DNA of 64,000 nt, taken from positions 58,097 through 122,096 of IMG/VR virus record IMGVR_UViG_3300005573_000063, one strand, 5' to 3'. Shown piece after piece: positions 38,401 through 57,111 of the stretch. Source of the stretch: a virus. The stretch's first letter is position 1. The number at the start of each line of letters is the position of its first letter. Both the position numbers and the translations under genes were made by a program. The notes beneath the pieces are model-generated. The model was not told the DNA's origin and did no database searches. It saw only the letters and a list, made by a program, of their open reading frames with translations.

Positions 38401-41400
38401 CCAGAAGAGCAAGAAGATATAGAAAATGAAGATAGACCTCAGGCATTGCATGTGCATCTAAGGCATCTTACTCCTCAAGAACTAGCACTACATCAGAAGA
38501 CAAAACTACCTCCTGCTCAGGATATATTTGCACGTAAAATGAATAGAGAGTTCTATAGAAGATCTGCTACTCCTACACAAGCAGCTAAGCAAATTCCTTC
38601 TAATGAATTCCGCAAGCATGAAATCTCAGGTAGACCTAATCGTGGAGATTTTCCTAAGGACAATGAAGAGCTTCAGAACTATGTCTATAAGATTCTCTTA
38701 AAGCATTATCCTGCATCTACATTGCAATGGGTAAAAGATAGAGACATGCTATGGGATTACGATCCTCACGTACCTTTGAAAGAAATCAATATGGGCAGGC
38801 GTCCTGGTGGAAGAAATCCTAAGAAGGTTAAAGGTATAGAAGAAGCCATGCGTGGTGGTAAGAAAATGGACCCTGTTTTCTTGGTAAATGTATGGAAAGA
38901 TGGTGAACCTTCTGAGAAATGGGAAGTAGCAGATGGATATCATAGAACTCTTGCATATGACCATGCAGGATTCAAAAATATTCATGCATATACATGCGAC
39001 ATTCCTACGCAGGAATTGGCTGATAAATATGATTCACCATGGAAGACAGAGATGCACGATAAGAAGAAGAATGTAGCGCATAGACTAGAACAAATCCTCG
39101 CTAGACGTTATGCTGCTGCACATAAGAACATGTTCGTGCCATTAGGTACCCGAATGACTTCACCAGAAGTGTCGAGAAAAAGCTTCTCTAACGATGGTGG
39201 ATTGAATGACTACATGGATACAGTAAAACATGAAAGCGGTGAGCAATCTATTGCCAAAGGTATTTCCGAGCAGTCTCATCTCAGGAAAAGAATTGATAAT
39301 AGGTTATCTAATGAAATACTGGCATCTCATGTAGCCAAGGTTATAGGAGCGCCTGTGCCAGAAATAGGCGTTAATCCCCATAAGCAGCAGTCACGTAATG
39401 CAGAAGCCCATGAATTGATAATGCCTAAAATTCCAGGTAAGACGGGATGGGATTATGGCTTTGGGAGAGGTACAGACCACTTACAGGGAGGATTGGAACT
39501 AGGAATTCTAGACTATCTGATAGCCAATGGTGACAGGCATGGTGGAAACTATATTATCTCCCCAGATGGTAAAAGCGTTACTGGTATAGACCATGAATAT
39601 TCATTCTTTGACCCTACTCATCCAGCATTCAATCAGAGTCCCTTTGTAGAGGATCATTTCGACAATGAGTATCATCGTGCTCCTGTGGATCATGCATGGA
39701 TGCGTTCACTAGAACAACCCTTGCAAGACTTGAAGCCACTATTTAAGAAATATTACAGAGCTTCAGATCATACAGATATGATGAATAGATATCACCATCT
39801 TACTAATCAAATTGTATTCTCTCATCCTGATGCAGGTCAACTTCCTCCAACCACAGCTGCCAGGAAGACTGCATCATCTAGTCAATTTGTTCCTTTGGGG
39901 GAAAGAGAAACTTCACCTGTTACTGAAAGAACTTCTTTAGCTGATAATAAGGGAATGTTAAATTCATATGTGCATGTTTTGACGCACGCCAATAACCAGC
40001 AATCCATTGAAAAGGGAATGTTGTCTCAAAGAGGTATGAAAAAAGAGATATTGGCATCTAGAGTAGGACAGATTTTGGGAACTCCCGTAGGAGAAGTTAA
40101 ACAAGTTCCTGTATCTTCGGTTCACTTACCGGATTCTAGAGAACGGAGAGCACAAGATCCCGAAGTCGCTATTAGAATGCCTAAGCATGAAGGACAAACT
40201 GCCTTGAGCGTACCAAAGGCAGATAGAGTGGCTCACTTAGAGTACCCTGGCGGTAAAGAACTGGGATTATTTGATTATATTACTAATAATAGTGACAGGA
40301 ATGGTGGTAATTATCTAATTAATCCTCAAACAAATCAAATCCATGGAATAGATCATGAATTTACATTTATGCCTCCTGAGGATGGTGGAAGTGATTTCTC
40401 CGATTACCACATAAAACCTATTTTAAACGGGACAGGTACCCGTTCACCTATTGATCCAGATCTATATGATTCATTCGAGGAGCCCTTAAAGGCATTAGCT
40501 CCTGAGTTTAGTAAAATTCAACCGTGGGCTTATGAGAAACAAGGGGAACAACTCCATGAAGACATGATGGAGAGGTATTATCGCCTTCAGTCTGCACTTC
40601 ATAGTCTTCCTCGTCACTCTTCTTCTAGACAAGTAATTGCCAACATGTCTCCTAAAGAACTTGCAGACTTGGTGCACAAGAACACGGTCCAAAATGGTGG
40701 AGCAACCATGGACCTTGAGGGAAACACGCCTCTGCAAGGGTATTCGTATGGTCCATACAAGGATCGGGAATACAAAGTACCTACTCAGGCGTTTATGGAT
40801 AACCCACGGGCTCATCTTGAGAAGTTCTTTAATTTGAATAAAGATAAATTGGGTATAGATGGTCACCACATAGGAACATGGATTGATCCTGAAACAGGAC
40901 ACACCTATCTAGACGTGGTGAAGGTAGGAGAGCCGCATAGGGATACAATAGACGCAGCGCAGAAAGCACAGCAGCTAGCTGTGTATGATCTTGCGCATAT
41001 AGATAATAATGACCTGGGTACAGTACCCGTAGGTCAATTCAATGAAGAAGGTAGGTATATTCCCCTTGACACGCCAGACAATATCCATAATCAGCACCAA
41101 AGGCAAGCCGCTGAATCAATTAGCGGATCAGGTAATAGCAGCCCACACCAAGTACCTAGCCCAATCAGCCCAGGAGAGACGCAAGCTGTCTCATCTCGCA
41201 GGAGCGCCGGTAAGCGGAGATTCTTTAGACCTATTAACGGGCAGCGAGCCTTTGAGTACGACACCACTAGACGGAACTATACCAGAAGAGCACGAGGGGC
41301 GCCCAGAATAGGCGCAGAGGGTCCACAACAAAATCCTAATTACTTTGTACCTTCGATAAAGTCTCCTATCGTACAGCGCAAGCCTTTACTAGAAAGTGAA

Positions 41401-43332
41401 GGTCAAGGTGCTATGAATACGTATGTTCACAATCTGCGTCATGAGAATGGTCAATACAGTATCGAAAAAGGAATGGATGGTGGAATGGGACATGAGAACG
41501 AGATTCTTGCATCTCACGTAGGAAAAGCTATAGGTGCGCCTGTAGGAGAAGTCAAGTCAGTAGATCCAGATCCTAGTTCAATCGGCTCCGTTAAGGATCT
41601 CGTAGCTATTCAAATGCCTAAGCATCCAGGAAGAAGTGGCATATTTCCCGTAAGAAGCAGACATGAGGACGACTATCTCAAAATGGATGGAGCTAAAGAA
41701 CTAGGATTGTTTGATTACCTAATAGATAACATAGATAGAAATGATGGTAATTACTTAGTTCATCCTGAAGAAAATAAAGTCTATGGTATCGACCATGAAT
41801 TAGGGTTTGATGATGGAGATCCACATGGTAGATATGTCTATTCTCCATTTTGGAGGGCATATAATCCAAGTATTCTTGGACACAAGAATCCCCTATCGGC
41901 TCAAATAACTCGACCTTATGTAGAGTCTTTCCGCCAGCCCCTTACCAAACTCTTACCTAAGTTTAAAGAAATGGGAAGAGAAAGATCTCATGAAGTCATG
42001 ATGCAACGATATGAAAATCTCTTAGGTGATATTGATGAACGAGATCAAAATATAGAACGTTTCAATCGTTTACATTCTTCTAACCTTCAAGTTAATACTC
42101 CATTAGAAGATCTGATACATGAAACACACTCATGGCGCAATAATGTATTAGGGCGCAGACTAACCTCTTTCACGAGAAAAAGCATTTTCAAAAGGAAGAA
42201 GCCGGTTAGAGTTATTGCTCGAATTCCTGATTATGAATTACCTAAAAACATACAAATCAATCCTCAAATTCCTAACTCAGGACAACTTGCATTACCAGGG
42301 ATGAGTCCATCATGGTTTGTAGGCCAAGGTGATCGCCAGACATCTCCTGAAACTAAGAGAGAACCTCTTGCAGGTAGAGGGTATGGGACATTTGGCGCAT
42401 ATGTGCATAAGATAAACCATGCTAATGGTGAACAAAGTATTGCCAAAGGTATGCATCAACATCCTGCATATGAGGGAGAAGAAAGTGATTACGCAGGAGT
42501 TAACAGAAGAATAACTAATGAACTATTAGCTTCCCATGTAGGGAAAATAGTAGGTGCTCCTGTGCCTGAAGTTACATTAAGAGATGCTCCAGAGCAATAT
42601 CACAATAAAGGTACAGAAAAAGAACTGTTCATGCCACGCCTATCAGGTGTAACAGGGCGTGGAGATTATTATAATCATTTTGATAAATATTCTGGCATTA
42701 ATTTTTATCTACTTGGTAAAGAACACGCAAAGATGAAGGGTGGAAAAGAACTAGGTGTATTAGACTGGCTACTAGATAATAAAGATAGGCATTCTCAAAA
42801 CTATCTAGTCAATAGAAAACAAAACAGAGTTTATGGAATAGATCATGAATTTGTATTGGGAGATATCGGAAGTAATGCACATAATCCGTTTATAACTCAT
42901 ATACTTGAACATCCTGAAACCATAGACCCAGAATGGTATCGTAGCTTACATGCTCCATTAGCTAAATCTAAGTCTGTCTTTAAGCAATATGGCGCAGGCG
43001 ATAGACATAAAGACTTAATGCGCAACTATAAGTCACTAGGAAAAGAACTAGGTATTAACGGATTAACTAAAACAAGTGCTACTATTCCTCAAGCTCCGAA
43101 TGATAACATAGATCAGGCTCAGTCACTAGAGAAAGACGAAACTAATTCACCCTTAGCTCAAGAATCAGAGCTATATAACCTGGATGGTGAAGTGCACAAC
43201 AAGAGCACACCTGCTCCTCCGAAACCTGCTACACTCAAGGGTCCGAAGATTCCGAAGGCACCTCAGGGCTATCCTAAAGTTAAGATGCCACCTAAGGCAC
43301 CTAAACCCCAGCTCTCGAATTTTCCTACATAA
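35419..43332 (+). CDS. giant polyvalent protein: six-His domain, 3 ADP-ribosyltransferase, ParB-like, 4 HipA/PI3K-like kinase and one unassigned domain
   Basis: LHRG..SW[TS]..[EQ]xE three times; VADGYHR; EILAS..GAP..LxDY[L/I]..N.DRxxxNY..GIDHE four times; start ATG 35419 after AAGGA (ORF open from 35359). Confidence 0.85.
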   Translation: MHSFTRRKRLYPVAANGQKTASNEAILAHMQSKHGMPFETALAWKKGLDNPTKYGYADQARVGGQLLRVHNYQHRHPDSLNGINQPGKVYHEHGALHRSLYNPPSPKKKANTYHQADNHLHPIVEKGILPIQEWDHYQDVAEALAKLPSHARRPPIPSSKTADNVRQWTEGNWSSMRAFMEELHKGNYDQYFPRTDAGLYSLWHHSPSTEKELHRGLRSKKSLNELEQLLDTNPVLHDQFNSWTEDPLVANDFARRRTPAVGTPIIMHLQGPAKTLNISPYSSIVDEKEHIGRGPYQVVSHKRSADNKALHVNVKAAEPVPGIEEDSLPSIYSKKIAGKEYRKGGPNLHRAAVLRNTIRREQRLGGILDTKRPEWRAQKYAPWDVGPTGAFYDNEPITSLPADTSIRQNLIELAHDLNSVHHDYYPHNRKAKNSDDYVWPSSYSPVLDHPEHEKMLHDKYFTGPQSPTMDSTLRKIGLSLQGTDNHKRRHDPYQFTLSNAPRNSPELHRGVASLLHPKTLEERLIPGNMFKDNPRSWSSNERYAQEWTGQPTAHRMNSKIVFHLPSNSQALQVSPISRILGLDFEHQNEWQAGGPYKINSVDHAVNNGHSIYHAQVEQVSPEEFDKWAQQNKWTEPPSFFKALKDERTQDDKKSGEKTDKELQEEKWTEPPDYFKDSVHSQTSTRRGKRHFQRIIASNPSTPDQILASSPHLNDFLDTNDVGNLRDHANALNGSLDDLSLEDHVQSFKDAFPRHPLIHGIKQWTQDNSTPIRKTMEKFHKGNTPLEFDPRADDYDKFPEDSANLYAAWAQAPHNSLELHRGIKSSKSVEELQQILKDHPVLDDSFASWSGDPETSYHFAALPRNAHHLNTPIEFHLPPDSHALYVAPWSSNPEEEEWIAHGPYAVDRSYVTPHSAPDNELDNDYYMDGHQGYLSSHQPFLDWEKQEYPTFDQERAKYLENRPPFNMAIPGLEEDNAIKENRKSHMRSYFDSHLSPEEQEDIENEDRPQALHVHLRHLTPQELALHQKTKLPPAQDIFARKMNREFYRRSATPTQAAKQIPSNEFRKHEISGRPNRGDFPKDNEELQNYVYKILLKHYPASTLQWVKDRDMLWDYDPHVPLKEINMGRRPGGRNPKKVKGIEEAMRGGKKMDPVFLVNVWKDGEPSEKWEVADGYHRTLAYDHAGFKNIHAYTCDIPTQELADKYDSPWKTEMHDKKKNVAHRLEQILARRYAAAHKNMFVPLGTRMTSPEVSRKSFSNDGGLNDYMDTVKHESGEQSIAKGISEQSHLRKRIDNRLSNEILASHVAKVIGAPVPEIGVNPHKQQSRNAEAHELIMPKIPGKTGWDYGFGRGTDHLQGGLELGILDYLIANGDRHGGNYIISPDGKSVTGIDHEYSFFDPTHPAFNQSPFVEDHFDNEYHRAPVDHAWMRSLEQPLQDLKPLFKKYYRASDHTDMMNRYHHLTNQIVFSHPDAGQLPPTTAARKTASSSQFVPLGERETSPVTERTSLADNKGMLNSYVHVLTHANNQQSIEKGMLSQRGMKKEILASRVGQILGTPVGEVKQVPVSSVHLPDSRERRAQDPEVAIRMPKHEGQTALSVPKADRVAHLEYPGGKELGLFDYITNNSDRNGGNYLINPQTNQIHGIDHEFTFMPPEDGGSDFSDYHIKPILNGTGTRSPIDPDLYDSFEEPLKALAPEFSKIQPWAYEKQGEQLHEDMMERYYRLQSALHSLPRHSSSRQVIANMSPKELADLVHKNTVQNGGATMDLEGNTPLQGYSYGPYKDREYKVPTQAFMDNPRAHLEKFFNLNKDKLGIDGHHIGTWIDPETGHTYLDVVKVGEPHRDTIDAAQKAQQLAVYDLAHIDNNDLGTVPVGQFNEEGRYIPLDTPDNIHNQHQRQAAESISGSGNSSPHQVPSPISPGETQAVSSRRSAGKRRFFRPINGQRAFEYDTTRRNYTRRARGAPRIGAEGPQQNPNYFVPSIKSPIVQRKPLLESEGQGAMNTYVHNLRHENGQYSIEKGMDGGMGHENEILASHVGKAIGAPVGEVKSVDPDPSSIGSVKDLVAIQMPKHPGRSGIFPVRSRHEDDYLKMDGAKELGLFDYLIDNIDRNDGNYLVHPEENKVYGIDHELGFDDGDPHGRYVYSPFWRAYNPSILGHKNPLSAQITRPYVESFRQPLTKLLPKFKEMGRERSHEVMMQRYENLLGDIDERDQNIERFNRLHSSNLQVNTPLEDLIHETHSWRNNVLGRRLTSFTRKSIFKRKKPVRVIARIPDYELPKNIQINPQIPNSGQLALPGMSPSWFVGQGDRQTSPETKREPLAGRGYGTFGAYVHKINHANGEQSIAKGMHQHPAYEGEESDYAGVNRRITNELLASHVGKIVGAPVPEVTLRDAPEQYHNKGTEKELFMPRLSGVTGRGDYYNHFDKYSGINFYLLGKEHAKMKGGKELGVLDWLLDNKDRHSQNYLVNRKQNRVYGIDHEFVLGDIGSNAHNPFITHILEHPETIDPEWYRSLHAPLAKSKSVFKQYGAGDRHKDLMRNYKSLGKELGINGLTKTSATIPQAPNDNIDQAQSLEKDETNSPLAQESELYNLDGEVHNKSTPAPPKPATLKGPKIPKAPQGYPKVKMPPKAPKPQLSNFPT

Positions 43333-43341
43333 AGTTGCCCC

Positions 43342-43370
43342 TTGACAAGCTAGAAGAAATGTGGTAAGCT
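43342..43370 (+). promoter_or_regulatory. promoter of His-protein array 2
   Basis: TTGACA-17 nt-TAAGCT with extended TG, then AAGGAGG RBS. Confidence 0.75.
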
Positions 43371-43393
43371 AGTGAGGCGTAAGGAGGAGAACT

Positions 43394-43597
43394 GTGAGCT
43401 TTGAGGGCTTGATTAAACATCTAGAAAAAGAAGATCATGAAACGAGTGGAAATCCTAGGAGGCTGGGATCTTTCCTGAGAGAAAATTTAGAATGGATTTC
43501 TACAGACCCCGATCTTCGTATAATCGGGTATGAGGCTCATATCTACAGTCATCTACAAAATCAGGCTGAGTTAAGCCATAGTCATGGAGAAAAGTAA
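43394..43597 (+). CDS. six-His small protein (array 2)
   Basis: EGLIKHLEKEDH...HIYSH...HSHG. Confidence 0.8.
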   Translation: MSFEGLIKHLEKEDHETSGNPRRLGSFLRENLEWISTDPDLRIIGYEAHIYSHLQNQAELSHSHGEK

Positions 43598-43803
43598 TGA
43601 GTATGAATAGTCTCTTAATTCACTTAAGAGATGAGTGGCATGTCCTTTCTTATCGGGACCGTCAATTAATGATTCATTTATTGCGCACTCCGAGTGATCT
43701 TCTCTTTGTGAGTCAGGATGGGAAAGGTAAGGCGTGGTATACTCGCCATATCTACAGTCATCAACGATATGATTTACTACATACACACGGAGAATCCAAA
43801 TGA
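43597..43803 (+). CDS. six-His small protein (array 2)
   Basis: LLIHLRDEWH...HIYSH...HTHG. Confidence 0.8.
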   Translation: MSMNSLLIHLRDEWHVLSYRDRQLMIHLLRTPSDLLFVSQDGKGKAWYTRHIYSHQRYDLLHTHGESK

Positions 43804-44015
43804 GCATAGAAGGGTTAATAACGCATCTTCAAAAAAAGCACTCTACTATGGGGGATACAGACTACACTTGGATTCTAGAGGCGCTAGAAAGTGGCAAAAA
43901 ATGGAGTAGTCTTGAGTGTGGTAAACAGCTAGGATGGTATGGCTGGCATCGGAGCCTCCATAATGCAAAAATATTTAATCCGCCTCATAGTCATACATCG
44001 GGAGGAGTGAAATGA
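43800..44015 (+). CDS. six-His small protein (array 2)
   Basis: EGLITHLQKKH...HRSLH...HSH. Confidence 0.8.
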   Translation: MSIEGLITHLQKKHSTMGDTDYTWILEALESGKKWSSLECGKQLGWYGWHRSLHNAKIFNPPHSHTSGGVK

Positions 44016-44215
44016 GCATTCTTGGCTTATTAAGGCATGCAGTAAAAGACCATAGCATCTATGCAGGTGGTCCTACACGTAACCTTTTGTCCCGTCTAGA
44101 GGAGGGGGGAGAATGGCGCCCCCTGTATGATGGAGAGCCGGTAGCGTGGTACCACTGGCATACGCAACAACACCGGAACCTTCGGAGATATAACCACACT
44201 CATGGAGGTAAGTAA
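44012..44215 (+). CDS. six-His small protein (array 2)
   Basis: GLLRHAVKDH...HTQQH...HTHG. Confidence 0.8.
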   Translation: MSILGLLRHAVKDHSIYAGGPTRNLLSRLEEGGEWRPLYDGEPVAWYHWHTQQHRNLRRYNHTHGGK

Positions 44216-44451
44216 TGAGTTCTGAGGGCGCAGTGCTTCATCTCGTAACTCACCATTATAATACTAATGAATTGGTAAGATTTAATGGCATATCCTGGAA
44301 TGAATGGATAAAGCAGAACAAAGAAAAGAACCGAGAAAAGAGCACGATGTTACTCCTCCTGAGAATTCACCAGGATTGTCATAGGAAACAAATAGCTCAA
44401 ATTATTCCCCATACTCACGGAGTATCAAATGAGGTTTGGAGTATTAAATGA
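44215..44451 (+). CDS. six-His small protein (array 2)
   Basis: EGAVLHLVTHH...HQDCH...HTHG. Confidence 0.8.
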   Translation: MSSEGAVLHLVTHHYNTNELVRFNGISWNEWIKQNKEKNREKSTMLLLLRIHQDCHRKQIAQIIPHTHGVSNEVWSIK

Positions 44452-44663
44452 GTTTTAAAGGAGCACTCGAACATTGTATAGCGCATCATTACGTTGGCAG
44501 CTACCTCCTTAATGAGAACAACTTGGAAAATTATAGACAGACTATGGGAGAGGACCGAGCTTTTCGAGTGATTAGGGATCGCCACCGGATTTGTCATCTG
44601 GCGCAGATGAGTATGCTTGTCCCACACACACATGGAGTTTTTAAGGAGGGTGAAATAGAGTGA
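44448..44663 (+). CDS. six-His small protein (array 2)
   Basis: GALEHCIAHH...HRICH...HTHG. Confidence 0.8.
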   Translation: MSFKGALEHCIAHHYVGSYLLNENNLENYRQTMGEDRAFRVIRDRHRICHLAQMSMLVPHTHGVFKEGEIE

Positions 44664-44872
44664 GTATTGAGGGTCTACTTCATCATTTACTTCTAAAGGA
44701 CCATCAGGACTTCGCTAATGTTTTAATAGCTCAAGGATTATTGGATGATGAGATGATTGACATCCGCACTGGTGAACATATGGTGGCATGGTATACTTAC
44801 CATAAGAGGCGTCACCTACAGCGCCCACCTATTTGCAATCATTCTCATGAGGCAATTAATGAATGCCATTGA
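44660..44872 (+). CDS. six-His small protein (array 2)
   Basis: EGLLHHLLLKDH...HKRRH...HSH. Confidence 0.8.
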   Translation: MSIEGLLHHLLLKDHQDFANVLIAQGLLDDEMIDIRTGEHMVAWYTYHKRRHLQRPPICNHSHEAINECH

Positions 44873-44884
44873 GGCAATTAATGA

Positions 44885-45103
44885 ATGTCATCCTCCTCTC
44901 TATTCAAACATTATTTAATGTATCACCACTATCCGGATGGTCATTTTCAGAGTGATTTAGAGAAATATGCAATAGAAATGTCTATTGCCTCATGTGAAAT
45001 GAATTTAATGGCAGATAGCGTCTATGAACAATGGGTGAGGGCTCATAGACAAAGTCATATAAAGCAAAATATTGCGTGGGACCATAAGGAAAAGGTGAAA
45101 TAG
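44885..45103 (+). CDS. six-His family small protein (array 2), one terminal His missing
   Basis: LFKHYLMYHH...HRQSH...WDH. Confidence 0.75.
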   Translation: MSSSSLFKHYLMYHHYPDGHFQSDLEKYAIEMSIASCEMNLMADSVYEQWVRAHRQSHIKQNIAWDHKEKVK

Positions 45104-45104
45104 A

Positions 45105-45326
45105 GTGACTATAGAGGGAATAATGCGTCATCTGGGAAGTGAATCTCATAAAGATTCAAAAAATCATCTACGAGCACGCCTACTTCTGGACGAGGAAAGA
45201 ACTAGCTCAAATGCCCTAAAGGCTATAAAAGAGAACAAGAGTTGTAGGATAGACTGGTATAGATGGCATAGAAGAGAACATACTGAATTTGGTTGTACTT
45301 CTCACGATCACGGAGTATACAAATGA
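45105..45326 (+). CDS. six-His small protein (array 2)
   Basis: EGIMRHLGSESH...HRREH...HDHG. Confidence 0.8.
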   Translation: MTIEGIMRHLGSESHKDSKNHLRARLLLDEERTSSNALKAIKENKSCRIDWYRWHRREHTEFGCTSHDHGVYK

Positions 45327-45547
45327 GCACGCAAGGATTATTAGAACATATCCACCACGAGCACTTATTGATATCAGGAAAAGACCAGAATATAATTGAT
45401 ATATTAGACCATTTACGGCAGGGAGATGATTGGGATTGGCGTAAGTGGAGTTCTCCTCAGGAGTGGTACAAGTGGCATATGAGCTTGCACGCTCAACCCG
45501 GTAGCAGGGCTAGAAAGTGTGACCACACTCATGGAGGGATTGTATGA
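45323..45547 (+). CDS. six-His small protein (array 2)
   Basis: QGLLEHIHHEH...HMSLH...HTHG. Confidence 0.8.
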   Translation: MSTQGLLEHIHHEHLLISGKDQNIIDILDHLRQGDDWDWRKWSSPQEWYKWHMSLHAQPGSRARKCDHTHGGIV

Positions 45548-45795
45548 GCATGCAAGGATTGCTTCAACATATTGTGGATGAACACCCATTGGTTATGGAA
45601 GAATTCGGTGAGAATGATGAATCCCTGAAAAGGATTTTAACTAGATTGAAGAGTGGAGCACAGTGGAGCGTTAAACAATGGCAGCCATCTGTTGAGTGGT
45701 ACGAGTGGCACGTAGCTCTTCATCACTACCACCTTCCATCTAGAGAATGTGTTCATACACATGGAGTCTTCTTTGAAGAAAAAATAAATATATGA
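45544..45795 (+). CDS. six-His small protein (array 2)
   Basis: QGLLQHIVDEH...HVALH...HTHG. Confidence 0.8.
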   Translation: MSMQGLLQHIVDEHPLVMEEFGENDESLKRILTRLKSGAQWSVKQWQPSVEWYEWHVALHHYHLPSRECVHTHGVFFEEKINI

Positions 45796-45866
45796 GTACA
45801 ATAGGGTTATTAAAGCATGTAAAGTCTCTCCCCCTCAATCACGATCATGGAGCGTACAAAAAATGA
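45792..45866 (+). pseudogene. internally deleted six-His family member (24 aa)
   Basis: MSTIGLLKHVKSLPLNHDHGAYKK*: keeps N- and C-terminal motifs and ATGA coupling on both sides. Confidence 0.7.
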
Positions 45867-46102
45867 GCTTTAAAGGGTTAATTTCTCATTTAGAGAAGGA
45901 AAAGCATGGAGTTTCGATATACCCTCAGAACCGCAATGATTATCTTACGGTTCGGGTAGCTGATAATGATGTCTGGATAAGAGAGATGGAAAACCCAGCT
46001 CTCGCAGAGGTTCGCAGAAAGTGGTATCGTGAACACATGCATGCACATCAACAGGGGTATGCCATTAATCATTCTCATAATCATTCTCACGGAGAGAAAT
46101 AA
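45863..46102 (+). CDS. six-His small protein (array 2)
   Basis: KGLISHLEKEKH...HMHAH...HSHNHSHG. Confidence 0.8.
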   Translation: MSFKGLISHLEKEKHGVSIYPQNRNDYLTVRVADNDVWIREMENPALAEVRRKWYREHMHAHQQGYAINHSHNHSHGEK

Positions 46103-46317
46103 TGAGTATCGAGGGATTATTACAACATATAGGCAGCGACGCTCATAATGGGTCTTCTGATACGGTAACCGCTCGTAATATTCTTGCCTCTCCCTATCTT
46201 CTTAACATTGTAAGGGGGGATCCTCTCCTAAGTAGCTGGTATAGTTATCATTCGAAGCTTCATCGTGCAGGTTCCAAGCCGATTCCTAACCACACTCATA
46301 TAGGAAAAGTGAAATGA
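46102..46317 (+). CDS. six-His small protein (array 2)
   Basis: EGLLQHIGSDAH...HSKLH...HTH. Confidence 0.8.
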   Translation: MSIEGLLQHIGSDAHNGSSDTVTARNILASPYLLNIVRGDPLLSSWYSYHSKLHRAGSKPIPNHTHIGKVK

Positions 46318-46523
46318 CTCTAAAAGCACTACTTTCCCATATAGGAAGTGAGGCGCATAAAGAGTCTTTTGCCTGCGATCACGCTCGTGATATCTTACAT
46401 GATCTATTGAGAGTTGTCGAATGCAATAGAAGTGCAAGACTTGGGTGGTATCGGCATCATACAGAGCTGCATAATTCGACATATCATGTGCCTAATCATA
46501 GTCATGGGAAAGGAACCAAATGA
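46314..46523 (+). CDS. six-His small protein (array 2)
   Basis: LLSHIGSEAH...HTELH...HSHG. Confidence 0.8.
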   Translation: MTLKALLSHIGSEAHKESFACDHARDILHDLLRVVECNRSARLGWYRHHTELHNSTYHVPNHSHGKGTK

Positions 46524-46723
46524 GTGCAATAGGAATGATGCGACATGTAGCTAGTGAGAAACATTCGCAGTCCAGAGACAATAAATATGCTAAACGCATC
46601 CTACAAACCACGCTGACTATAGAAAAAATAACAAATGATAGTAGGTACACAAGAATGTGGTTGAGGGCTCATATGGCTGAGCATATGCGCCTTGGTATCC
46701 CCTTTAGTCACGAAGGAAGTTGA
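46520..46723 (+). CDS. six-His family small protein (array 2), FSH end
   Basis: GMMRHVASEKH...HMAEH...FSH. Confidence 0.78.
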   Translation: MSAIGMMRHVASEKHSQSRDNKYAKRILQTTLTIEKITNDSRYTRMWLRAHMAEHMRLGIPFSHEGS

Positions 46724-46724
46724 C

Positions 46725-46937
46725 ATGAGTGTAGAGGGATTACTTCGGCATTTTAGCAGTTATTCACATAGAGGGCATCCAAATTGCGCAAAAAGTAAGG
46801 AAATCCTAGAAGAAGTAAGTAAGGTCCGAATTCACAAAATTGAAGCTACCGATTCACTTTCATATGAATGGATTAGGGCACATATCCAAGCACATAAAGA
46901 GGGCAATATTCCCTTCACGCATGAAAAGGATGCTTAG
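46725..46937 (+). CDS. six-His family small protein (array 2), FTH end
   Basis: EGLLRHFSSYSH...HIQAH...FTH. Confidence 0.78.
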   Translation: MSVEGLLRHFSSYSHRGHPNCAKSKEILEEVSKVRIHKIEATDSLSYEWIRAHIQAHKEGNIPFTHEKDA

Positions 46938-47173
46938 TGAGTATAGAGGCAGCCCTAAATCATTGTGTGACATATCATTATTTTGATTTTCGTGGAAAAG
47001 AGAGATTCGATAAGTCCGCTTGGGAAGTATATAGGGGGAAGGCTGGAGATAAACAAACTCATTCTTTGTTAATCCATCTGCATAGATATAGGCATGAGAA
47101 GGAGTGCCCTCAACTCATCAATCATACTCATAATGTATTCCCGGACATTGAAAAAGAAAGACCACGTAAATGA
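46937..47173 (+). CDS. six-His small protein (array 2)
   Basis: ALNHCVTYH...HRYRH...HTH. Confidence 0.8.
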   Translation: MSIEAALNHCVTYHYFDFRGKERFDKSAWEVYRGKAGDKQTHSLLIHLHRYRHEKECPQLINHTHNVFPDIEKERPRK

Positions 47174-47424
47174 GCTTAAAAGGACTACTTACTCATCTTA
47201 TAGAGGTTCCACACTATAATTCCCATCTGTCGGACTTAGATGTAATGGTTAAGGATCTCCTGGCTAATCCAGAGCGTATAGAAAGAATAGAGAAGGCTAG
47301 CCACCTACGTGGCTCTCCGTGGTATTCAGTACATCGTTCATCACATAAGGAAAGTCATTGTTCAATCATCTCCCATACTCATCCCGGCTTAGTAGTGAAG
47401 AGTCCATTTGACAGCGGTGTGTAA
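47170..47424 (+). CDS. six-His small protein (array 2)
   Basis: KGLLTHLIEVPH...HRSSH...HTHP. Confidence 0.8.
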   Translation: MSLKGLLTHLIEVPHYNSHLSDLDVMVKDLLANPERIERIEKASHLRGSPWYSVHRSSHKESHCSIISHTHPGLVVKSPFDSGV

Positions 47425-47436
47425 AAGCGCTATACT
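47408..47436 (+). promoter_or_regulatory. internal promoter in array 2
   Basis: TTGACA-17 nt-TATACT. Confidence 0.7.
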
Positions 47437-47490
47437 AAGAAGTGGCAAATAAACAGACAGCAAGACCCTATAATACAAAGGAATAATAAA

Positions 47491-47622
47491 ATGGCAGATA
47501 GCCCGAAAACCAACAAAGATAAGCGCAATAGTGAATCCGAGCTGATTAACGTGCTTGGTATTGTATATGACCATGGGCGTAAGACAGAGCTAGCAGATGA
47601 GGATGAAGGAGAGAAGAAGTAA
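47491..47622 (+). CDS. small charged hypothetical protein (43 aa)
   Basis: MADSPKTNKDKRNSESELINVLGIVYDHGRKTELADEDEGEKK*; AAGGA RBS. Confidence 0.5.
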   Translation: MADSPKTNKDKRNSESELINVLGIVYDHGRKTELADEDEGEKK

Positions 47623-47626
47623 GTCT

Positions 47627-47830
47627 ATGTCAACAATAGGATTAATGAGGCATATGGCGAAGGAACACTCAGAGAGTACTCTTGGAAAGTCAGCTAAATT
47701 CTGGGCAAAGAGTGAACAACCCCCTGATGAGCTAGAGGTTTTTTTAAGAAAAACTAAACGTTATAGTCAGTACATGAAGCAACACAGACGGCTGCATGTT
47801 CAAAAGGGGGTTACTCATTCTCATCCTTAG
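47627..47830 (+). CDS. six-His small protein (array 2)
   Basis: IGLMRHMAKEH...HRRLH...HSHP. Confidence 0.8.
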   Translation: MSTIGLMRHMAKEHSESTLGKSAKFWAKSEQPPDELEVFLRKTKRYSQYMKQHRRLHVQKGVTHSHP

Positions 47831-47848
47831 AAAGAAAGAGAGCTAGTA

Positions 47849-48049
47849 ATGAGTTATATCAGTTTATTGAAGCATCTTGAGACTTATCATCATTACTATT
47901 TTTCACGGTGGGAATATGAGGAGGGGGAGGAGCAGTCAAGGGGTCTTTTTAGATATAGATATCATACGGAAGAACATGGTCAGAATCCTTCACAGACTTT
48001 CTTTTTATCACCTATTCCTCACGACCATGGAAAGAGGCTTTGCGAATGA
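47849..48049 (+). CDS. six-His small protein (array 2)
   Basis: LLKHLETYH...HTEEH...HDHG. Confidence 0.8.
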   Translation: MSYISLLKHLETYHHYYFSRWEYEEGEEQSRGLFRYRYHTEEHGQNPSQTFFLSPIPHDHGKRLCE

Positions 48050-48243
48050 GCCTAAGGGGAGCTTTTCGTCATTGTATGAAAGATCATTTATTCAATGAAA
48101 TAAGTTGGAATTCTCACCTAATGAGGCATGGAGAAAGAAAAACACACGAGAATCTTATTGTGTCCCATAGTAATCATCATGCGATATGGAATGGGAGGGA
48201 GAGGAAGTTAAATCATACTCATCAAAAGGAGCAAACTAAGTGA
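48046..48243 (+). CDS. six-His small protein (array 2)
   Basis: GAFRHCMKDH...HSNHH...HTH. Confidence 0.8.
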   Translation: MSLRGAFRHCMKDHLFNEISWNSHLMRHGERKTHENLIVSHSNHHAIWNGRERKLNHTHQKEQTK

Positions 48244-48455
48244 GTATAGAAACCTTAAAAGACCATCTATGGGCGTATCATGCTCGAATGGGAAGAGATG
48301 ATCGCTCTAGTTTTACTCCGGACAGAGAGAGCCATGCCTTCCTTATAAAAATGCATAGTCTGCGTCATACAAACCGGATGTTTTCCAACAGGGTTGGTAC
48401 CAAACCTTATATTGTTGACCCCATTCACGACCATGGAAAGAGGGAGTGGAAATGA
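48240..48455 (+). CDS. six-His small protein (array 2)
   Basis: LKDHLWAYH...HSLRH...HDHG. Confidence 0.8.
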   Translation: MSIETLKDHLWAYHARMGRDDRSSFTPDRESHAFLIKMHSLRHTNRMFSNRVGTKPYIVDPIHDHGKREWK

Positions 48456-48646
48456 GTATTGAAGGGGCCTTAAAGCACTGCATTAGTCGTCATGGATTCT
48501 CTGATAAAGCTTGGCGTGGTCAATGGGAAAGAGATGGAGACAAAAAGTTTTTTCTTTCTGTCATCAAACTTCACCTTAAAGATCATCAAGAAGTAGTTAC
48601 AGTGAACGAGCCTCATACTCACGGAATCTTTAGAAAAGAGATGTAG
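48452..48646 (+). CDS. six-His small protein (array 2)
   Basis: EGALKHCISRH...HLKDH...HTHG. Confidence 0.8.
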   Translation: MSIEGALKHCISRHGFSDKAWRGQWERDGDKKFFLSVIKLHLKDHQEVVTVNEPHTHGIFRKEM

Positions 48647-48647
48647 G

Positions 48648-48884
48648 GTGTCTGCATATGGAATTCTGAGACATATAGAAAAAGAACACCCCGAGTTTTT
48701 GTATTGGGATGCTGTATGTCGGATACTACAGGAAGAATCGCTAGAACATATTGAGGATTCTGTTAAAGCGGAGCGTAATGGATGGTGGTATATTGCCACT
48801 CATCGAGAGCTTCATAAACACAACCCTACAAATAGAATGAATAACGTACCTTTACGTTACCATAAGCATGGAGAAAATAAATGA
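48648..48884 (+). CDS. six-His small protein (array 2)
   Basis: GILRHIEKEH...HRELH...HKHG. Confidence 0.8.
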   Translation: MSAYGILRHIEKEHPEFLYWDAVCRILQEESLEHIEDSVKAERNGWWYIATHRELHKHNPTNRMNNVPLRYHKHGENK

Positions 48885-49075
48885 ACGCCTCTCATCCCTC
48901 CCCGTCTTCAGGATTATGGCGTCATTTAACTGAGTTTCATTATTGGCCCATAGGGTCATATAGAAACCATTCATACAAAATATTTTTAGCGATGCACTCC
49001 CAGGATCATCGCCAACAAAGTTTCTTTGAACATAATAAAATTTTAAAACATGAGCACGGCAATGCGAGTAAGTAG
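48881..49075 (+). CDS. six-His small protein (array 2)
   Basis: SGLWRHLTEFH...HSQDH...HEHG. Confidence 0.8.
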   Translation: MNASHPSPSSGLWRHLTEFHYWPIGSYRNHSYKIFLAMHSQDHRQQSFFEHNKILKHEHGNASK

Positions 49076-49271
49076 ATATCCAAAAGAAAATTCTGGACTT
49101 TGGAAACACCTTGTACAATACCATGTACGATACTATTCATGGACTAACGATAATAGAGTAAATGCTACAATACTTCAGTTTTTGAAATACCACATAAGGG
49201 ATCATAATTTAGGAAAACGAGACTTTGACAATCCTAACGCAGAATATTACCACATACATGGTCAAAAGTGA
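49050..49271 (+). CDS. six-His small protein (array 2)
   Basis: SGLWKHLVQYH...HIRDH...HIHG; start uncertain. Confidence 0.78.
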   Translation: MSTAMRVSRYPKENSGLWKHLVQYHVRYYSWTNDNRVNATILQFLKYHIRDHNLGKRDFDNPNAEYYHIHGQK

Positions 49272-49423
49272 CCGGATAGGTAATTAACTCCCTGTATGAT
49301 TCATATGTAGTGAAGATTTTTTTGTTTTTACTACAAAAAATAGAGTTGTCTCTCCATCTTACACACTATATCACGCAGATGAGGAAGACGCAAGAATTAC
49401 TTACCAATCTCCAAGAAGGAAAT

Positions 49424-52372
49424 ATGGCCTACGATCCATCTAATTATTCTGCTCGAAGAGAACTAGAGAGAATACGCAAGAATCCTCCGGTTGGCTCCAA
49501 CAACCCCCTAGAACGTCGTCTAGAGAACCGAAGAATGCTCCAGCAGGGAAGGAGCGGTGAATTAACAAGTGCTATGAATCATATTTCATCGGCTCTTTAC
49601 CCGGAGCCGGGATCAAGTCGAGGAATAGTGCTTCCTGAAGGGAGAAATCGCCTTAATAATTTCTCTGAAGGTCGCACCCTGGGAATGGGAAGAGAAAGCG
49701 CAGCTAATCAAGAACTAATGTCTCAGATGAAAAGGCGTGGAGGAAACACACGTACTGCTGCAGCCTTTGGAACTGATTCACAGTGGGCATGGCCTAAGTT
49801 GCACGATCCTTTCGAGTATTGGAGGGAACGTTGTGTCTTACCAGGCCAGGATATCACTCTCCGAGATGGTTCTAAGAAAATAGAAGATATTCAAGAGGGT
49901 GAATTTGCACTTACCCATATGAGTCGCTTCCGAGAAGTCTGTAAAACGATGAACAGAGAGTATGATGGAACGATTTTTAATATTAAACCTCGTTATCATC
50001 GTCCTATCAGGGTGACCGAAGGTCACAAGATATGGAGTAAAAGAAACAATATCCAACAATGGATCAAATCCGAAGACTTAACTCTAGAGGATCTTTTATT
50101 GATCCCAGTAGATAGAACAGTTCAAGATCAAAATTCTATTTCTATTTGGGATAGTGAAGAAACTCCAGAGGGATTTTGGGTAAAAATTGAATCTATCCAA
50201 TCTTCTCATTACAATGGGTTAGTTTATAACCTTTCAGTGAAAGAAGATCATAGCTTTACTTGCAATGACATTGCAATAAGTAACTGCTGGTGGTTTGATA
50301 TGGAGGATCCCGAAGAGCAGCAAGTTAAGATACGAGACTGGGTACGTCTTATGTATGTTACCCACTATCTTGTACCAGGACTTATTGACATCTATACTAG
50401 ATGGCCTTTGCAAGATATCGAGCTTGTACATAAAGACAAAAGACTTGTCGGATTCTACGAAGATCTGTTCTTCAACAGCATGGACTATGAAGACCATCTA
50501 TTCAATATGGGTAGAGAATTCTGGCTTACTGGTGAAGTATTCTCCCTTGGTTCATGGCATGAAGGTATTGGTATGTGGGATGATGATGAGATTATTAATC
50601 CCAACGATGTAGTAGTAGCACGCAATAGGGCATTAAGAACTTATCAATACCATGTAAAGATTCCTTCTGAAATAAGAAAACTTATTGACACTCGTGATCC
50701 TGCTGCAGAATATGCAACCCTAGTGGAACTGTATCCAGATATTATTGCATGGGCACGAGAAGACAACGAAATCCCTGTTTCCGATGTTCTAATGAAACAG
50801 CAGAAATTTAGTACCTCACCATGGAGCCAGCATGGTACCCCTTTGCTTCTTCGTGCATTCCGTGTGTTAATGCTTGAAGAGAGCCTTAATGCTGCTCAGG
50901 ATGCAATCTGCGACCGGCTTTACAGCCCTCTTATTCTAGCTACATTGGGACTGCCTGATGTTGACGAAGATGGTCCATGGATTCCTACACAAGCTGAACT
51001 ACAGGCATTGCGTGATGACCTTGGATTAGCTATTAACTCGGACTTCCGACTTATGGTTTATCACCACGGTCTAAAGATAGAAAATGCTTTTGGTAGAGAA
51101 GCTATGCCAAGAATGGATCAAGACTTCATTCGAGTAGAATCACGCCTTATGCAGGTATTCGGTATTGGTGCAGAAATGTTGCAAGGAGGGCGCAATACTT
51201 CAGGTACTTACGCTTCAGGTGCTCTTAATAGAGAACTTATCACTCAGATGCTTGAAAGCTATCAGATTAACCAAAAGAAGTTCTTAAGAGAAAGAATGGA
51301 ACCTGTATCAGAAGCGCAAGAATTCTATGAGTACGAGCGTGTAGGTGGAAGAATGGTTCCTGTTATGGAAACTGTTCTTGAAATAGATCCTGAAAGTGGC
51401 GAAGAATACATTAGAGAAAAGCCAAAGCTGGCTCTTCCCGAGGTACGCTTTAAGACTATGAACTTGCGTGATGAGAATACCGAAAGACAGTTCTTATTTC
51501 AGTTGCAACAAGTTGGATTCCCTATCTCTTATGGATCACTTGCAGTTAATCTTCCTATCGACTTCAACGAGGAAGCACAAACTCGTAAGCGTGAGAAGAC
51601 AGATATGGTTATTGCGGAACAGCAATACAAGAAAGACCTATTCCAGCGTCTTACTTATGAAAATCTTCCTATTCCACCAGAATTGGCGCAAGAATACCAA
51701 ATCTATCTTCAGCAGTACCACCCTGACAAGGTTCAACAGTCCATGTCCACTATGCAGAGCCTCGCAGGGGACCCTGCAATGGGGCAACCGACTGCAGATA
51801 TATCTGGTGCTCCTATGACGCCAGACTTATTGTATCCAGGCAACGTGGGCGATGGACAGTTCGATATGCAGCAGATGCAAGAAGAAGCTAAGGAACAAGC
51901 ATCTGCTCAAGGCCAAGGTGGAGGCTATGCACCACCAGAATCATATGAACAGGCAGGAACTAGAGCCAAAAGAGATGCCATAAGGGATCGCAACAAGAGG
52001 GAAGCTGCAGCTCAAAAAGAAGCAGGAATTCCTTCGGTTCTAGATCCCAATTTCAAATATGATTTTGATTATGTCAAGCCATCTGCTGTTCTATTTGATA
52101 CTAGAGAATCTCCACTAGAGAGAGTATATTATGGCGCCAGAATGAAGTTTGGTGCTCCTCAAGGATCTGAAAAGATCATAAAGATGCGTCTTCCTGCAGG
52201 TGCCAAAGTAAGGCGCAATGAAGACATTTCTCATTTTACAGAAACAGCATTTAAAAAGCAGGCTAAATACGCTCTATCCTATGAAGACCAGAATCCTAAT
52301 GTGGATGAGGCAGATCAACCTGAACCTGTTGTGAAAGAAAATCAGGAAGGTCTGTCCGATATGGACAACTAA
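49424..52372 (+). CDS. portal protein with mini-intein
   Basis: IDIYTRWP, EFWLTGEV, HGTPLLLRAFR..EESL..AQDAICDRLYSPLILATLG resembles actinophage myovirus portals; start ATG 49424 after AAGGA (ORF open from 49310). Confidence 0.8.
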   Translation: MAYDPSNYSARRELERIRKNPPVGSNNPLERRLENRRMLQQGRSGELTSAMNHISSALYPEPGSSRGIVLPEGRNRLNNFSEGRTLGMGRESAANQELMSQMKRRGGNTRTAAAFGTDSQWAWPKLHDPFEYWRERCVLPGQDITLRDGSKKIEDIQEGEFALTHMSRFREVCKTMNREYDGTIFNIKPRYHRPIRVTEGHKIWSKRNNIQQWIKSEDLTLEDLLLIPVDRTVQDQNSISIWDSEETPEGFWVKIESIQSSHYNGLVYNLSVKEDHSFTCNDIAISNCWWFDMEDPEEQQVKIRDWVRLMYVTHYLVPGLIDIYTRWPLQDIELVHKDKRLVGFYEDLFFNSMDYEDHLFNMGREFWLTGEVFSLGSWHEGIGMWDDDEIINPNDVVVARNRALRTYQYHVKIPSEIRKLIDTRDPAAEYATLVELYPDIIAWAREDNEIPVSDVLMKQQKFSTSPWSQHGTPLLLRAFRVLMLEESLNAAQDAICDRLYSPLILATLGLPDVDEDGPWIPTQAELQALRDDLGLAINSDFRLMVYHHGLKIENAFGREAMPRMDQDFIRVESRLMQVFGIGAEMLQGGRNTSGTYASGALNRELITQMLESYQINQKKFLRERMEPVSEAQEFYEYERVGGRMVPVMETVLEIDPESGEEYIREKPKLALPEVRFKTMNLRDENTERQFLFQLQQVGFPISYGSLAVNLPIDFNEEAQTRKREKTDMVIAEQQYKKDLFQRLTYENLPIPPELAQEYQIYLQQYHPDKVQQSMSTMQSLAGDPAMGQPTADISGAPMTPDLLYPGNVGDGQFDMQQMQEEAKEQASAQGQGGGYAPPESYEQAGTRAKRDAIRDRNKREAAAQKEAGIPSVLDPNFKYDFDYVKPSAVLFDTRESPLERVYYGARMKFGAPQGSEKIIKMRLPAGAKVRRNEDISHFTETAFKKQAKYALSYEDQNPNVDEADQPEPVVKENQEGLSDMDN
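49832..50284 (+). mobile_element. mini-intein (151 aa) in the portal
   Basis: starts C-VLPGQDI...KKIEDI..GE, block B VTEGHKI, ends VYNLSVKEDHSFTCNDIAISN with Cys +1; no homing endonuclease. Confidence 0.88.
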
Positions 52373-52395: not shown

Positions 52396-52914
52396 ATGGC
52401 TACTAGCTACCCTGCATCTCTTGATACTTTTCATGATCCATTGTCTACGGACACTATGGCTAATAGTACCACGCCTCACCTGGACCAGCATGGCAATATA
52501 AATGATGCAGTAGCGGCTATAGAAACTGCTGTTGGTATAACCGGTGCGTTTAATTTTGTCTCTGCTGGTGCATTAACTTCTAGAACTTTTGCCATAGCTG
52601 GTGCAATTACTGTACCTTCCGGCAGTACTAATTACATCCCTCCATTCTTTGAACCTGTTTCAGCTAATACTACCAAGAGGTTGGTAGAAGTTCATTATAT
52701 TATAGAAACAGGAACCTCTGTTACATTTTCAGTGAACCAAAATGGAACTGGAATTACAGGGCTTAGTGCTCTTTCTGCCACTACTACTGCAGCTGGAACT
52801 GCACCTACTACACCTCCAAGTGTAGCTAATGGAGATTTATTTGCAATAGTAGTATCAGCCGTTTCTGGCTCTCCCGCAAATCTTACAGTTTCTCTTGTCT
52901 TTGAAACTCTATAA
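52396..52914 (+). CDS. virion fibre/structural protein
   Basis: YPASLDTF...HGNINDAVAAIETAVG N-terminus typical of phage fibre proteins; Thr/Ala-rich. Confidence 0.6.
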   Translation: MATSYPASLDTFHDPLSTDTMANSTTPHLDQHGNINDAVAAIETAVGITGAFNFVSAGALTSRTFAIAGAITVPSGSTNYIPPFFEPVSANTTKRLVEVHYIIETGTSVTFSVNQNGTGITGLSALSATTTAAGTAPTTPPSVANGDLFAIVVSAVSGSPANLTVSLVFETL

Positions 52915-52922
52915 GGGTAAAT

Positions 52923-54035: not shown

Positions 54036-54415
54036 GCACGACGAACACGATCACGTTGCCGGACCGGATCATCACGCAGACCGGCGAGCCGGCATGGGAC
54101 AACCCCACCGTATGGTCCTCGGAGAGCATCGAGTGGCTTCCGGGGTCGCCAGGGTATGAGGCGCAGCAGGGAGCGGCCAATCTCGCGGCTGCTCAGGCCG
54201 GCATCAACGCGCTGCTCGCGGCGCAGAGCGCGCTCGCGGCGCAGATCGCAACGGACGCTGCCATGTTTGCCGCGACCCCCGTCGGCTCGACGCTCACCTC
54301 CGAGCACATCGCTGCCCTCACACGCATGGTCAATGGATTCGGCACGACCATGCAGGCGATCACGGCCCATCTCCTCCTCACCGGGAACGCCCCTCCCACG
54401 ACTCCTCTGAGCTGA
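54032..54415 (+). CDS. hypothetical protein
   Basis: ATGA-coupled ORF with high GC3. Confidence 0.65.
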   Translation: MSTTNTITLPDRIITQTGEPAWDNPTVWSSESIEWLPGSPGYEAQQGAANLAAAQAGINALLAAQSALAAQIATDAAMFAATPVGSTLTSEHIAALTRMVNGFGTTMQAITAHLLLTGNAPPTTPLS

Positions 54416-54416
54416 T

Positions 54417-55707: not shown

Positions 55708-55716
55708 CTGCCCTCC

Positions 55717-57105: not shown

Positions 57106-57111
57106 CTGGGT

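Follow-up and report, generated by a model that had tools for sequence, protein, structure and literature searches.

What does a bacteriophage do with 26 consecutive genes for small paralogous proteins that share six histidines and little else? The array in question lies at positions 43394-49271 of the stretch of DNA analyzed here (the window), which comprises 64,000 nt and is the last 64 kb (positions 58,097 to 122,096) of the 122,096-bp IMG/VR virus record IMGVR_UViG_3300005573_000063, a record estimated to be 78% complete. The family to which these 26 genes belong is restricted to one lineage and numbers 49 copies, with the array as its largest block; the encoded mini-proteins, of ~65-80 aa, are soluble and helical. 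Our preferred interpretation, to which we give a probability of about 0.45, is that this family is a metal-stabilized mini-scaffold that was tandem-duplicated into a diversified set of host-directed effectors. The array had been singled out in an earlier, sequence-only reading of the window, whose claims are taken up below together with the results that bear on them.

An open reading frame (ORF) listing of the interval 43000-49700 (six frames, at least 40 aa) gave 56 ORFs, including 26 consecutive plus-strand ORFs of the six-His family between 43394 and 49271. Counted from the starts nearest to the shared motif, the products measure 64-84 aa, with 20 ATG and 6 GTG starts. Eighteen of the 25 junctions overlap (13 by 4 nt, 4 by 1 nt, and 1 by 26 nt); the other seven comprise three 1-nt gaps and gaps of 12, 18, 67, and 202 nt, of which the 67-nt gap is occupied by a 24-codon relic (45792-45866) and the 202-nt gap contains a TTGACA-N17-TATACT site and a 43-aa ORF, possibly a decayed copy. 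The sequence-only reading had described 26 ORFs of about 61-85 aa in ~5.9 kb, almost all translationally coupled; all 26 were found where it had placed them, and the 18 overlaps and three 1-nt gaps agree with the coupling. The features of the array are as follows.

43342 to 43370, plus strand: promoter-like site, TTGACA-N17(TGn)-TAAGCT, 9 of 12 consensus matches, 24 nt before ORF1.
43394 to 43597, plus strand: ORF1, 67 aa, GTG start.
43597 to 43803, plus strand: ORF2, 68 aa; a strain variant has 5 aa changes, with the scaffold His untouched.
43800 to 44015, plus strand: ORF3, 71 aa.
44012 to 44215, plus strand: ORF4, 67 aa; variants with 10 and 17 aa changes.
44215 to 44451, plus strand: ORF5, 78 aa.
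44448 to 44663, plus strand: ORF6, 71 aa.
44660 to 44872, plus strand: ORF7, 70 aa, GTG start; 22-nt tandem duplication (44848-44891) at its end.
44885 to 45103, plus strand: ORF8, 72 aa; final His pair reads W-D-H.
45105 to 45326, plus strand: ORF9, 73 aa, GTG start.
45323 to 45547, plus strand: ORF10, 74 aa from the MS.. start (longest frame from 45293); tree sister of ORF11.
45544 to 45795, plus strand: ORF11, 83 aa.
45792 to 45866, plus strand: relic copy, 24-codon ORF whose start and stop overlap ORF11 and ORF12.
45863 to 46102, plus strand: ORF12, 79 aa.
46102 to 46317, plus strand: ORF13, 71 aa; modeled, pLDDT 70.5.
46314 to 46523, plus strand: ORF14, 69 aa.
46520 to 46723, plus strand: ORF15, 67 aa; final pair F-S-H.
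46725 to 46937, plus strand: ORF16, 70 aa from the MS.. start (longest frame from 46692); final pair F-T-H.
46937 to 47173, plus strand: ORF17, 78 aa, GTG start.
47170 to 47424, plus strand: ORF18, 84 aa.
47408 to 47436, plus strand: internal promoter-like site, TTGACA-N17-TATACT, 11 of 12 consensus matches, in the 202-nt gap.
47491 to 47622, plus strand: 43-aa ORF in the 202-nt gap, with an 18-nt stretch in common with ORF8 and an end near ..YDHG..; these features weakly suggest that it is possibly a degenerate partial six-His copy.
47627 to 47830, plus strand: ORF19, 67 aa from the MS.. start.
47849 to 48049, plus strand: ORF20, 66 aa.
48046 to 48243, plus strand: ORF21, 65 aa.
48240 to 48455, plus strand: ORF22, 71 aa, GTG start.
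48452 to 48646, plus strand: ORF23, 64 aa.
48648 to 48884, plus strand: ORF24, 78 aa, GTG start.
48881 to 49075, plus strand: ORF25, 64 aa; N-terminus divergent.
49050 to 49271, plus strand: ORF26, 73 aa; N-terminus divergent; metagenome contigs depart from the window between 49112 and 49307.

The 26-row alignment contains six invariant positions, M1, H9, H15, H49, H53, and H64 (ORF1 numbering), and the sixth His, the other member of the last pair, is kept in 23 of the 26 copies and replaced by W or F in ORF8 (44885), ORF15 (46520), and ORF16 (46725), the three members that had been said to lack one His of the final pair. Mean column identity is 23%, in keeping with the earlier description of a shared His scaffold with divergence everywhere else. 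The HxHG codons double as the GGAG ribosome-binding site (RBS) of the following gene, and the gene junction is the best-conserved DNA within the array. Because the RBS of the next gene sits in these codons, the G that follows HxH is only partly a protein constraint; of the HxH(G/P) ending proposed before, the His pair stands as a protein feature, and the G belongs in part to the neighboring gene.

The array is not the whole family. An iterative hmmsearch of all 576 ORFs of at least 45 aa in the record converged on 46 ORFs, and three weaker ORFs that fit the His spacing bring the family to 49 domains, namely the 26 of the main array, groups of 7, 9, and 6, and one fused domain, with the relic as an extra; 15 of the 49 lie outside the window. 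The array of 26 copies reported by the sequence-only reading is thus real but only about half of the family, and that reading also overlooked the domain that opens the neighboring giant effector protein; both corrections strengthen the effector interpretation. By a crude count, the 48 solo genes make up about a quarter of the 195 ORFs in the 111-kb phage part of the record. The copies outside the main array are distributed as follows.

Window 32298 to 33908, plus strand: second array of seven six-His ORFs, with a TTGACT-N17-TAGACT site at 32270.
Window 32298-32549, 32534-32758, 32743-33015, and 32807-33253, plus strand: first four ORFs of the second array (in the fourth, the domain is the last 68 aa).
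Window 33205-33513 (weak), 33503-33742, and 33723-33908, plus strand: remaining three ORFs of the second array.
Window 35476 to 35727, plus strand: fused six-His domain at the N-terminus of a 2,657-aa ORF (domain E 4.7e-10, converged HMM).
Record 46022 to 48065, minus strand: nine-copy array, with one tRNA gene inside and four beyond its upstream end.
Record 2369 to 9539: six copies, found by the profile search.

The surroundings of the nine-copy array (record 44000-50000) carry five tRNA genes (Cys, Ser, Met, Thr, and Arg) on the minus strand, and genes for an HNH endonuclease and a BCS1-like AAA ATPase adjoin it. Across all 49 rows, five His never vary and the sixth is retained in at least 90%, at a mean column identity of 16%. 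Beyond the His, nothing but a hydrophobic pattern is conserved, and between the first and second His pairs both sequence and length are hypervariable, as the earlier description of a variable core had it. Cys is absent from 20 of the 49 domains, His content ranges from 5 to 11 per ~70 aa, GRAVY from -0.3 to -1.5, and pI from 5.6 to 10.3 (median 8.75).

Variation between strains shows which parts of this scaffold are maintained. Between 87 and 90% of the sampled words of the array are present in two metagenome runs from two studies, both labeled hot springs metagenome; no RNA run is among the holders listed for the stretch. The contigs of both runs show strain differences, and 16 strain-variant proteins in protein collections, which share changes and are therefore not independent, differ from the window at 66 aa positions, none of them one of the six scaffold His. 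As judged from these comparisons, the six-His scaffold is under purifying selection. Among the single-nucleotide polymorphisms listed, beyond which there are 217 further differences, the array has 11 nonsynonymous and 7 synonymous changes, against 1 and 4 in the portal gene. Copy number is also in flux. A 145-nt deletion joining 44843 to 44989, which removes the end of ORF7 and the start of ORF8, is found in both runs, indicating that single copies are expendable, and contigs leave the window sequence at 49112 and rejoin it at 49307, so that the last copy differs among strains. All 26 frames have nevertheless stayed open, although the median terminal branch measures 2.3 substitutions per site.

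The signatures of duplication are consistent with local growth of the family. On a tree of 49 short sequences that is mostly unresolved (33 of its 46 inner branches are open), three adjacent pairs come out as starred or well-supported sisters (45323/45544, 46102/46314, and 46520/46725), and the array labels need 9 changes, compared with 21.3 when shuffled, with none of 200 shuffles as low. In the relic at 45792-45866 the N-terminal motif is joined directly to the C-terminal HxHG, that is, by an internal deletion. The family grew by repeated tandem duplication of a unit bounded by the HxHG codons, the GGAG RBS, and the ATG-AGY start, after which the copies diverged nearly to saturation, each keeping an intact frame and its His.

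A confident model gives this scaffold a shape. AlphaFold2, with the 49 paralogues as alignment, predicts a small helical protein (pLDDT 82.6, pTM 0.65) with helices at residues 3-13, ending at the first His pair, 29-42, carrying H-x3-H, and 45-50, which is short; a loop connects helices 1 and 2, the C-terminal HxH arm has a pLDDT of ~80, and there are no strands. The model of ORF13 (38 rows, pLDDT 70.5) has two extra short helices in the variable insert. These predictions bear out the compact fold that had been proposed from the spacing of the His. The three constant pairs, H-x4/5-H at the end of helix 1, H-x3-H in helix 2, and H-x-H in the C-terminal arm, would most likely pin helix 1, helix 2, and the arm to one or two transition-metal ions, with Zn2+ at a His4 site plus a second site, or a single six-coordinate site, as the options. 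Six invariant His at fixed intervals in a sequence that is otherwise free, a small fold predicted with confidence, and a thermophilic setting together suggest a structural metal site. The result would be a very small, heat-stable scaffold suited to a hot-spring phage, in which the sequence between the His pairs is free to vary. That the scaffold itself amounts to a new type of metal site is less likely than not. A homodimer prediction with Zn scored 0.03 and is evidence neither way.

In the searches made, neither structure nor sequence connected the family to anything described. Foldseek gave 0 matches in the PDB at E<=10 with the better model and none at E<=0.001 with the first, and none in BFVD at E<=0.001. 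VIA-align over 48,161 chains reached a best Z of 3.8, and the ESM Atlas a best feature score of 0.86 and a best TM of 0.46, which are leads only. The profile libraries touched 16 Pfam families over 49 members (best E 0.013), 15 PHROGs families over 26 members (best E 0.031), and 7 NCBIfam families over 49 members (best E 0.0092), no family in any of the three being matched by more than one member. In PDB sequences, the family profile found only two C2H2 zinc-finger proteins at nonsignificant E-values of 1 and 2.7, aligned on their L-x2-H-x3/4-H helices. The sequence-only reading had recognized no named family, and Pfam, PHROGs, NCBIfam, and the PDB sequences agree with it.

Searches of larger collections returned the phage itself. 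With the 26-row profile, 1,835,955,588 representative proteins yielded 22 hits at E<=0.001, of which 16 are identical to the window and 6 are strain variants; as this search missed the divergent arrays of the record itself, its reach is limited and distant relatives may exist. Neither megablast of the array nor tblastn of two members (E<=1) matched any of 50,697 GenBank phage records. A homologue search with the 49-row profile gave 4 hits, each of them a protein of the record or nearly identical to one, and its longer-protein counterpart none among 2,608 candidates. Related-locus searches found none with a strain variant (viral contigs), with P0031 (metagenome contigs), or with the window 33980 protein, and the literature searched, without supplements, does not describe a six-His family. 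As far as these searches reach, a phage with ~49 copies of an all-histidine domain lacking a sequence or fold relative appears to be undescribed; viral multigene families and metal-stabilized mini-domains are, as such, already known kinds.

Two known metal-binding families were considered and rejected. Membership in the C2H2 zinc fingers does not fit, since 20 of the 49 domains are without any Cys, the AlphaFold2 model is without strands, and the profile match is confined to 1 of 49 members at a Pfam E of 0.041 and to the two PDB proteins above. The likeness lies in the two helical His pairs, which both read hydrophobic-x2-H-x3/4-H as in the finger; on the other hand, there is no Cys pair and no beta-hairpin, and a third, HxH pair is present, so the domain is not a member. 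Hemerythrin/HHE (PF01814), a four-helix bundle with a His/Glu/Asp di-iron site, was touched by 1 of 49 members at E 0.033, whereas the model is a two-helix hairpin with a short helix.

The array begins behind a promoter class that recurs across the phage. A generic promoter scan was at chance overall (49 sites found against 47.2 expected), with 43342 not among them. The motif TTGACA-N14-TGn-TAnnnT, on the other hand, occurs at 12 sites in the phage part, where 0.045 are expected and no more than 1 turned up in any of 200 Markov shuffles; all 12 are co-oriented with the local genes, and 43342 is one of them. The eight sites in the left 57 kb belong to the minus strand, and the four farther right to the plus strand (in the window, 3141, 22043, and 43342), a split that suggests divergent transcription from about record 57 kb. 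The claim of two consensus promoters therefore holds for 47408, with 11 of 12 matches, but less so for 43342, which has only 9 of 12 and yet fits the phage-wide extended motif; the accompanying claim of a host-type promoter before the array gains support from that motif. The genes of the array would form translationally coupled operons under host-type extended -10 promoters.

The neighboring genes place the domain among larger proteins. Upstream of the array, a 2,657-aa ORF (window 35359-43332, probable start 35419) matches PI3_PI4_kinase and HipA_2; its product opens with an M-H-S-F-T-R-R leader followed by K-T-A-S and then the six-His domain. Only 2 ORFs of the record have a leader of the type M-[HR]-[ST]-F-T-R-R, the other being a 400-aa ORF at window 25495-26697, and none of the 48 solo genes has it. 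Downstream lies the portal gene (window 49310-52372; phrog_2833, E 5e-152), interrupted by an intein (Pfam Intein_splicing, aa 206-322, E 1e-10) so that the portal match starts at aa 329. Elsewhere in the record, the copy at 3172-3393 follows directly, without a gap, behind a gene with ArdcN and MPTase-PolyVal domains. Beyond the portal gene, G+C rises from 42% to ~70% across 53.0-54.1 kb, and this GC-rich tail of the window (~53000-64000) carries genes for a tyrosine integrase (55717-56643, minus strand) and for an N6/N4 DNA methylase (62324-63976); contig depth about halves in it in both metagenome runs, and no contig among those listed bridges 52910-54018. The tail is probably an assembly chimera or a different element.

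Related phages carry other versions of this region. The nearest named relatives of the portal protein are those of Gordonia phage Stormageddon, Rhodococcus phage E3, and Mycobacterium phages, at 41-45% identity. In the cultured Rhodococcus phage E3, terminase and portal are separated by ~65 small hypothetical genes, mostly coupled (3779-25502), in the place taken here by the six-His arrays and giant gene, and a search of the first 50 kb of E3 with the six-His HMM gave a best E of 1.1 and no motif match. A distant IMG/VR fragment (L012), with a portal of 55% identity, is without the giant gene and the array upstream of its portal. In its 531-aa protein (5092-6687), one probable six-His domain aligns at every scaffold His (E 1.5e-4 at Z=1000), and two further homologues of that protein have one or two probable six-His copies, one of these homologues having lost a scaffold His. 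These proteins, of 457-531 aa, have several CxxC pairs, and their gene lies between homologues of window 28300-29118 and 33980-34426. A 49-row genome search of L012 and E3 gave nothing, a weak blank in that the same search missed the L012 copy found by hmmsearch, and a related-locus search with the 531-aa protein returned only its own contig. The domain directly follows K-T-A-S in the giant protein, S-K-T-A-S in L012, and K-I-A-S and K-T-S-S in the further homologues. Across the terminase-to-portal block (window 23725-43332), [KR]TA occurs 9 times in five proteins against ~1.7 expected, and from the sequence it may be a prohead-protease cleavage motif.

These contexts recall the accessory domains of phage polyvalent proteins (Iyer, Burroughs, Anand, de Souza, Aravind 2017; PMC5512222). 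The passages of that study consulted list no six-His or all-histidine domain among the matches for histidine and zinc. Occurrence both inside multi-domain effectors and as solo genes nearby, by which such domains are placed in the class, is found here in the giant protein, the 457-531-aa relatives (whose copies are probable), and the ArdC-adjacent copy. As in the systems of those passages, the six-His domain is fused to a multi-enzyme protein and also encoded by solo genes, and one solo copy sits behind ArdcN and MPTase-PolyVal, hub domains of the class (PMC5512222). An expansion to 48 solo copies, on the other hand, is not described in them. The copies would thus act, at the onset of infection, as small effector or binder modules on macromolecules of the host or of rival elements, the same module forming the first domain of the neighboring polyvalent, putative ADP-ribosyltransferase/kinase protein and another apparently sharing an operon with an ArdC-type antirestriction gene. 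Varied surfaces and charges, copy-number flux, host-type promoters, the polyvalent fusion, and the ArdC neighborhood together point to early effectors or binders directed against the host or against rival elements.

Several observations weigh against this effector interpretation. The metal, the transcript, the protein, and the target are all inferred rather than observed, and the six His are presumed to converge. Copies are individually dispensable in the population, as the deletion variant and the relic indicate, and some may be drifting. The promoter class that precedes the array also precedes the post-terminase gene block and need not be early-specific. For the fused copies of the distant phage, the signal of homology is modest (E 1.5e-4 and 4.2e-4 at Z=1000), and one relative is short of a scaffold His. 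Finally, the main array is flanked by the gene of a probably virion-associated giant protein on one side and by the portal gene on the other, a position that also fits packaged proteins.

This last point leads to the explanation that the mini-proteins are internal head proteins, which would enter the capsid together with the giant effector and be injected along with the DNA. The internal proteins and Alt of T4 and the paralogous inner-body proteins of phiKZ-like phages are precedents for proteins that are packaged and injected. Besides the position of the array between giant protein and portal gene, the domain follows K-T-A-S in the giant protein and likewise in the fused copy of the distant phage, and the excess of [KR]TA (9 against ~1.7) would suit protease release of a mini-protein with an N-terminal Ser, like the solo "MS.." proteins. 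However, the M-[HR]-[ST]-F-T-R-R leader is restricted to 2 ORFs of the record and absent from all 48 solo genes, 22 solo copies are remote from the head genes, being located among tRNA genes and behind ardC, and the pI is not uniformly basic, so that we consider packaging unlikely. The T4 internal proteins and Alt resemble the present case in combining small, fast-evolving proteins with an ADP-ribosyltransferase that acts at injection, with genes near head genes; the solo six-His copies differ in having no cleavable leader and starting directly with the first scaffold helix. To our knowledge, the T4 internal proteins are not a large paralogous family. A role as zinc-finger-like nucleic-acid-binding regulators that redirect host or phage transcription or translation would agree with the C2H2 helices as sole PDB sequence matches, with the median pI of 8.75, and with the CxxC-rich proteins in which the relatives' fused copies reside. 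It is distinctly less probable in view of the nonsignificant PDB E-values (1 and 2.7), the single member of 49 that touches the C2H2 Pfam model (E 0.041), a model without Cys knuckle or beta-hairpin, the many acidic members, and the difficulty of rationalizing 49 such regulators in one phage.

A largely neutral or selfish expansion, or a set of in-cis, immunity-like protectors against the toxin-like domains of the giant protein (cf. polyimmunity arrays), is suggested by the position of the array behind a multi-toxin-like gene, by the relic, the possible second relic, and the deletion variant, and by a nonsynonymous-to-synonymous ratio higher than that of the portal gene among the polymorphisms listed. 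We regard this as improbable given that 26 of 26 frames are intact at a median terminal branch of 2.3 substitutions per site, that scaffold His never change in the variants, that the copies are also found at four further sites with no relation to the giant gene, and that the domain is itself part of the giant protein. The abundance of His (5-11 per ~70 aa) and the hot springs label of both holding runs would suit buffering or scavenging of metals (Ni, Cu, Zn, or Fe), whether to the benefit of the phage or to the detriment of the host, in a hot spring rich in metals, but storage needs neither sequence diversification nor a fixed spacing of exactly six His, Cys is rare, and no transporter or metallochaperone genes are seen beside the arrays, which makes this account very improbable indeed.

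Set beside known systems, the diversified effector family has partial parallels. In T4 gp37, six His can form one octahedral metal site. HxH metal sites are found in phage tail fibers (PMC11705849), and the likeness lies in the use of HxH as metal ligands in phage proteins; there, the sites are built from three chains of a beta-structured fiber, whereas here the six His belong to one small, predicted helical chain. With regard to gene content, the multigene families (MGFs) of African swine fever virus and the host-range families of poxviruses ("genomic accordions") are large multigene families of eukaryotic DNA viruses. The six-His family shares with them tandem blocks of paralogues, a sizeable share of the genome, fast divergence, and a copy number that varies between strains; it differs in belonging to a phage, in its far smaller proteins, and in its His-based scaffold. 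A bolder version of our proposal, which we put forward tentatively and would not yet favor, is that an all-histidine clamp (a single six-coordinate site, or His4 plus a second) unlike those of solved structures underlies ~49 diversified effectors of a thermophilic phage, some reaching the host by injection, as the first module of a polyvalent ADP-ribosyltransferase/kinase protein and released from it by a protease, and others through early transcription, and that the family may be the phage counterpart of the host-range multigene families of eukaryotic viruses.

If the effector interpretation is true, this family would be among the largest paralogue expansions in a tailed phage, built on a scaffold without a detectable sequence or structural relative. 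It would also provide a natural mini-scaffold, heat-stable, free of Cys, and clamped by metal, with loops that accept almost any sequence, which would be of interest for protein engineering. From an evolutionary point of view, the array would offer a tractable case of phage effector diversity made and kept by tandem duplication, and its links to polyvalent proteins and to ArdC mark a place to seek new host-takeover or anti-defense activities.

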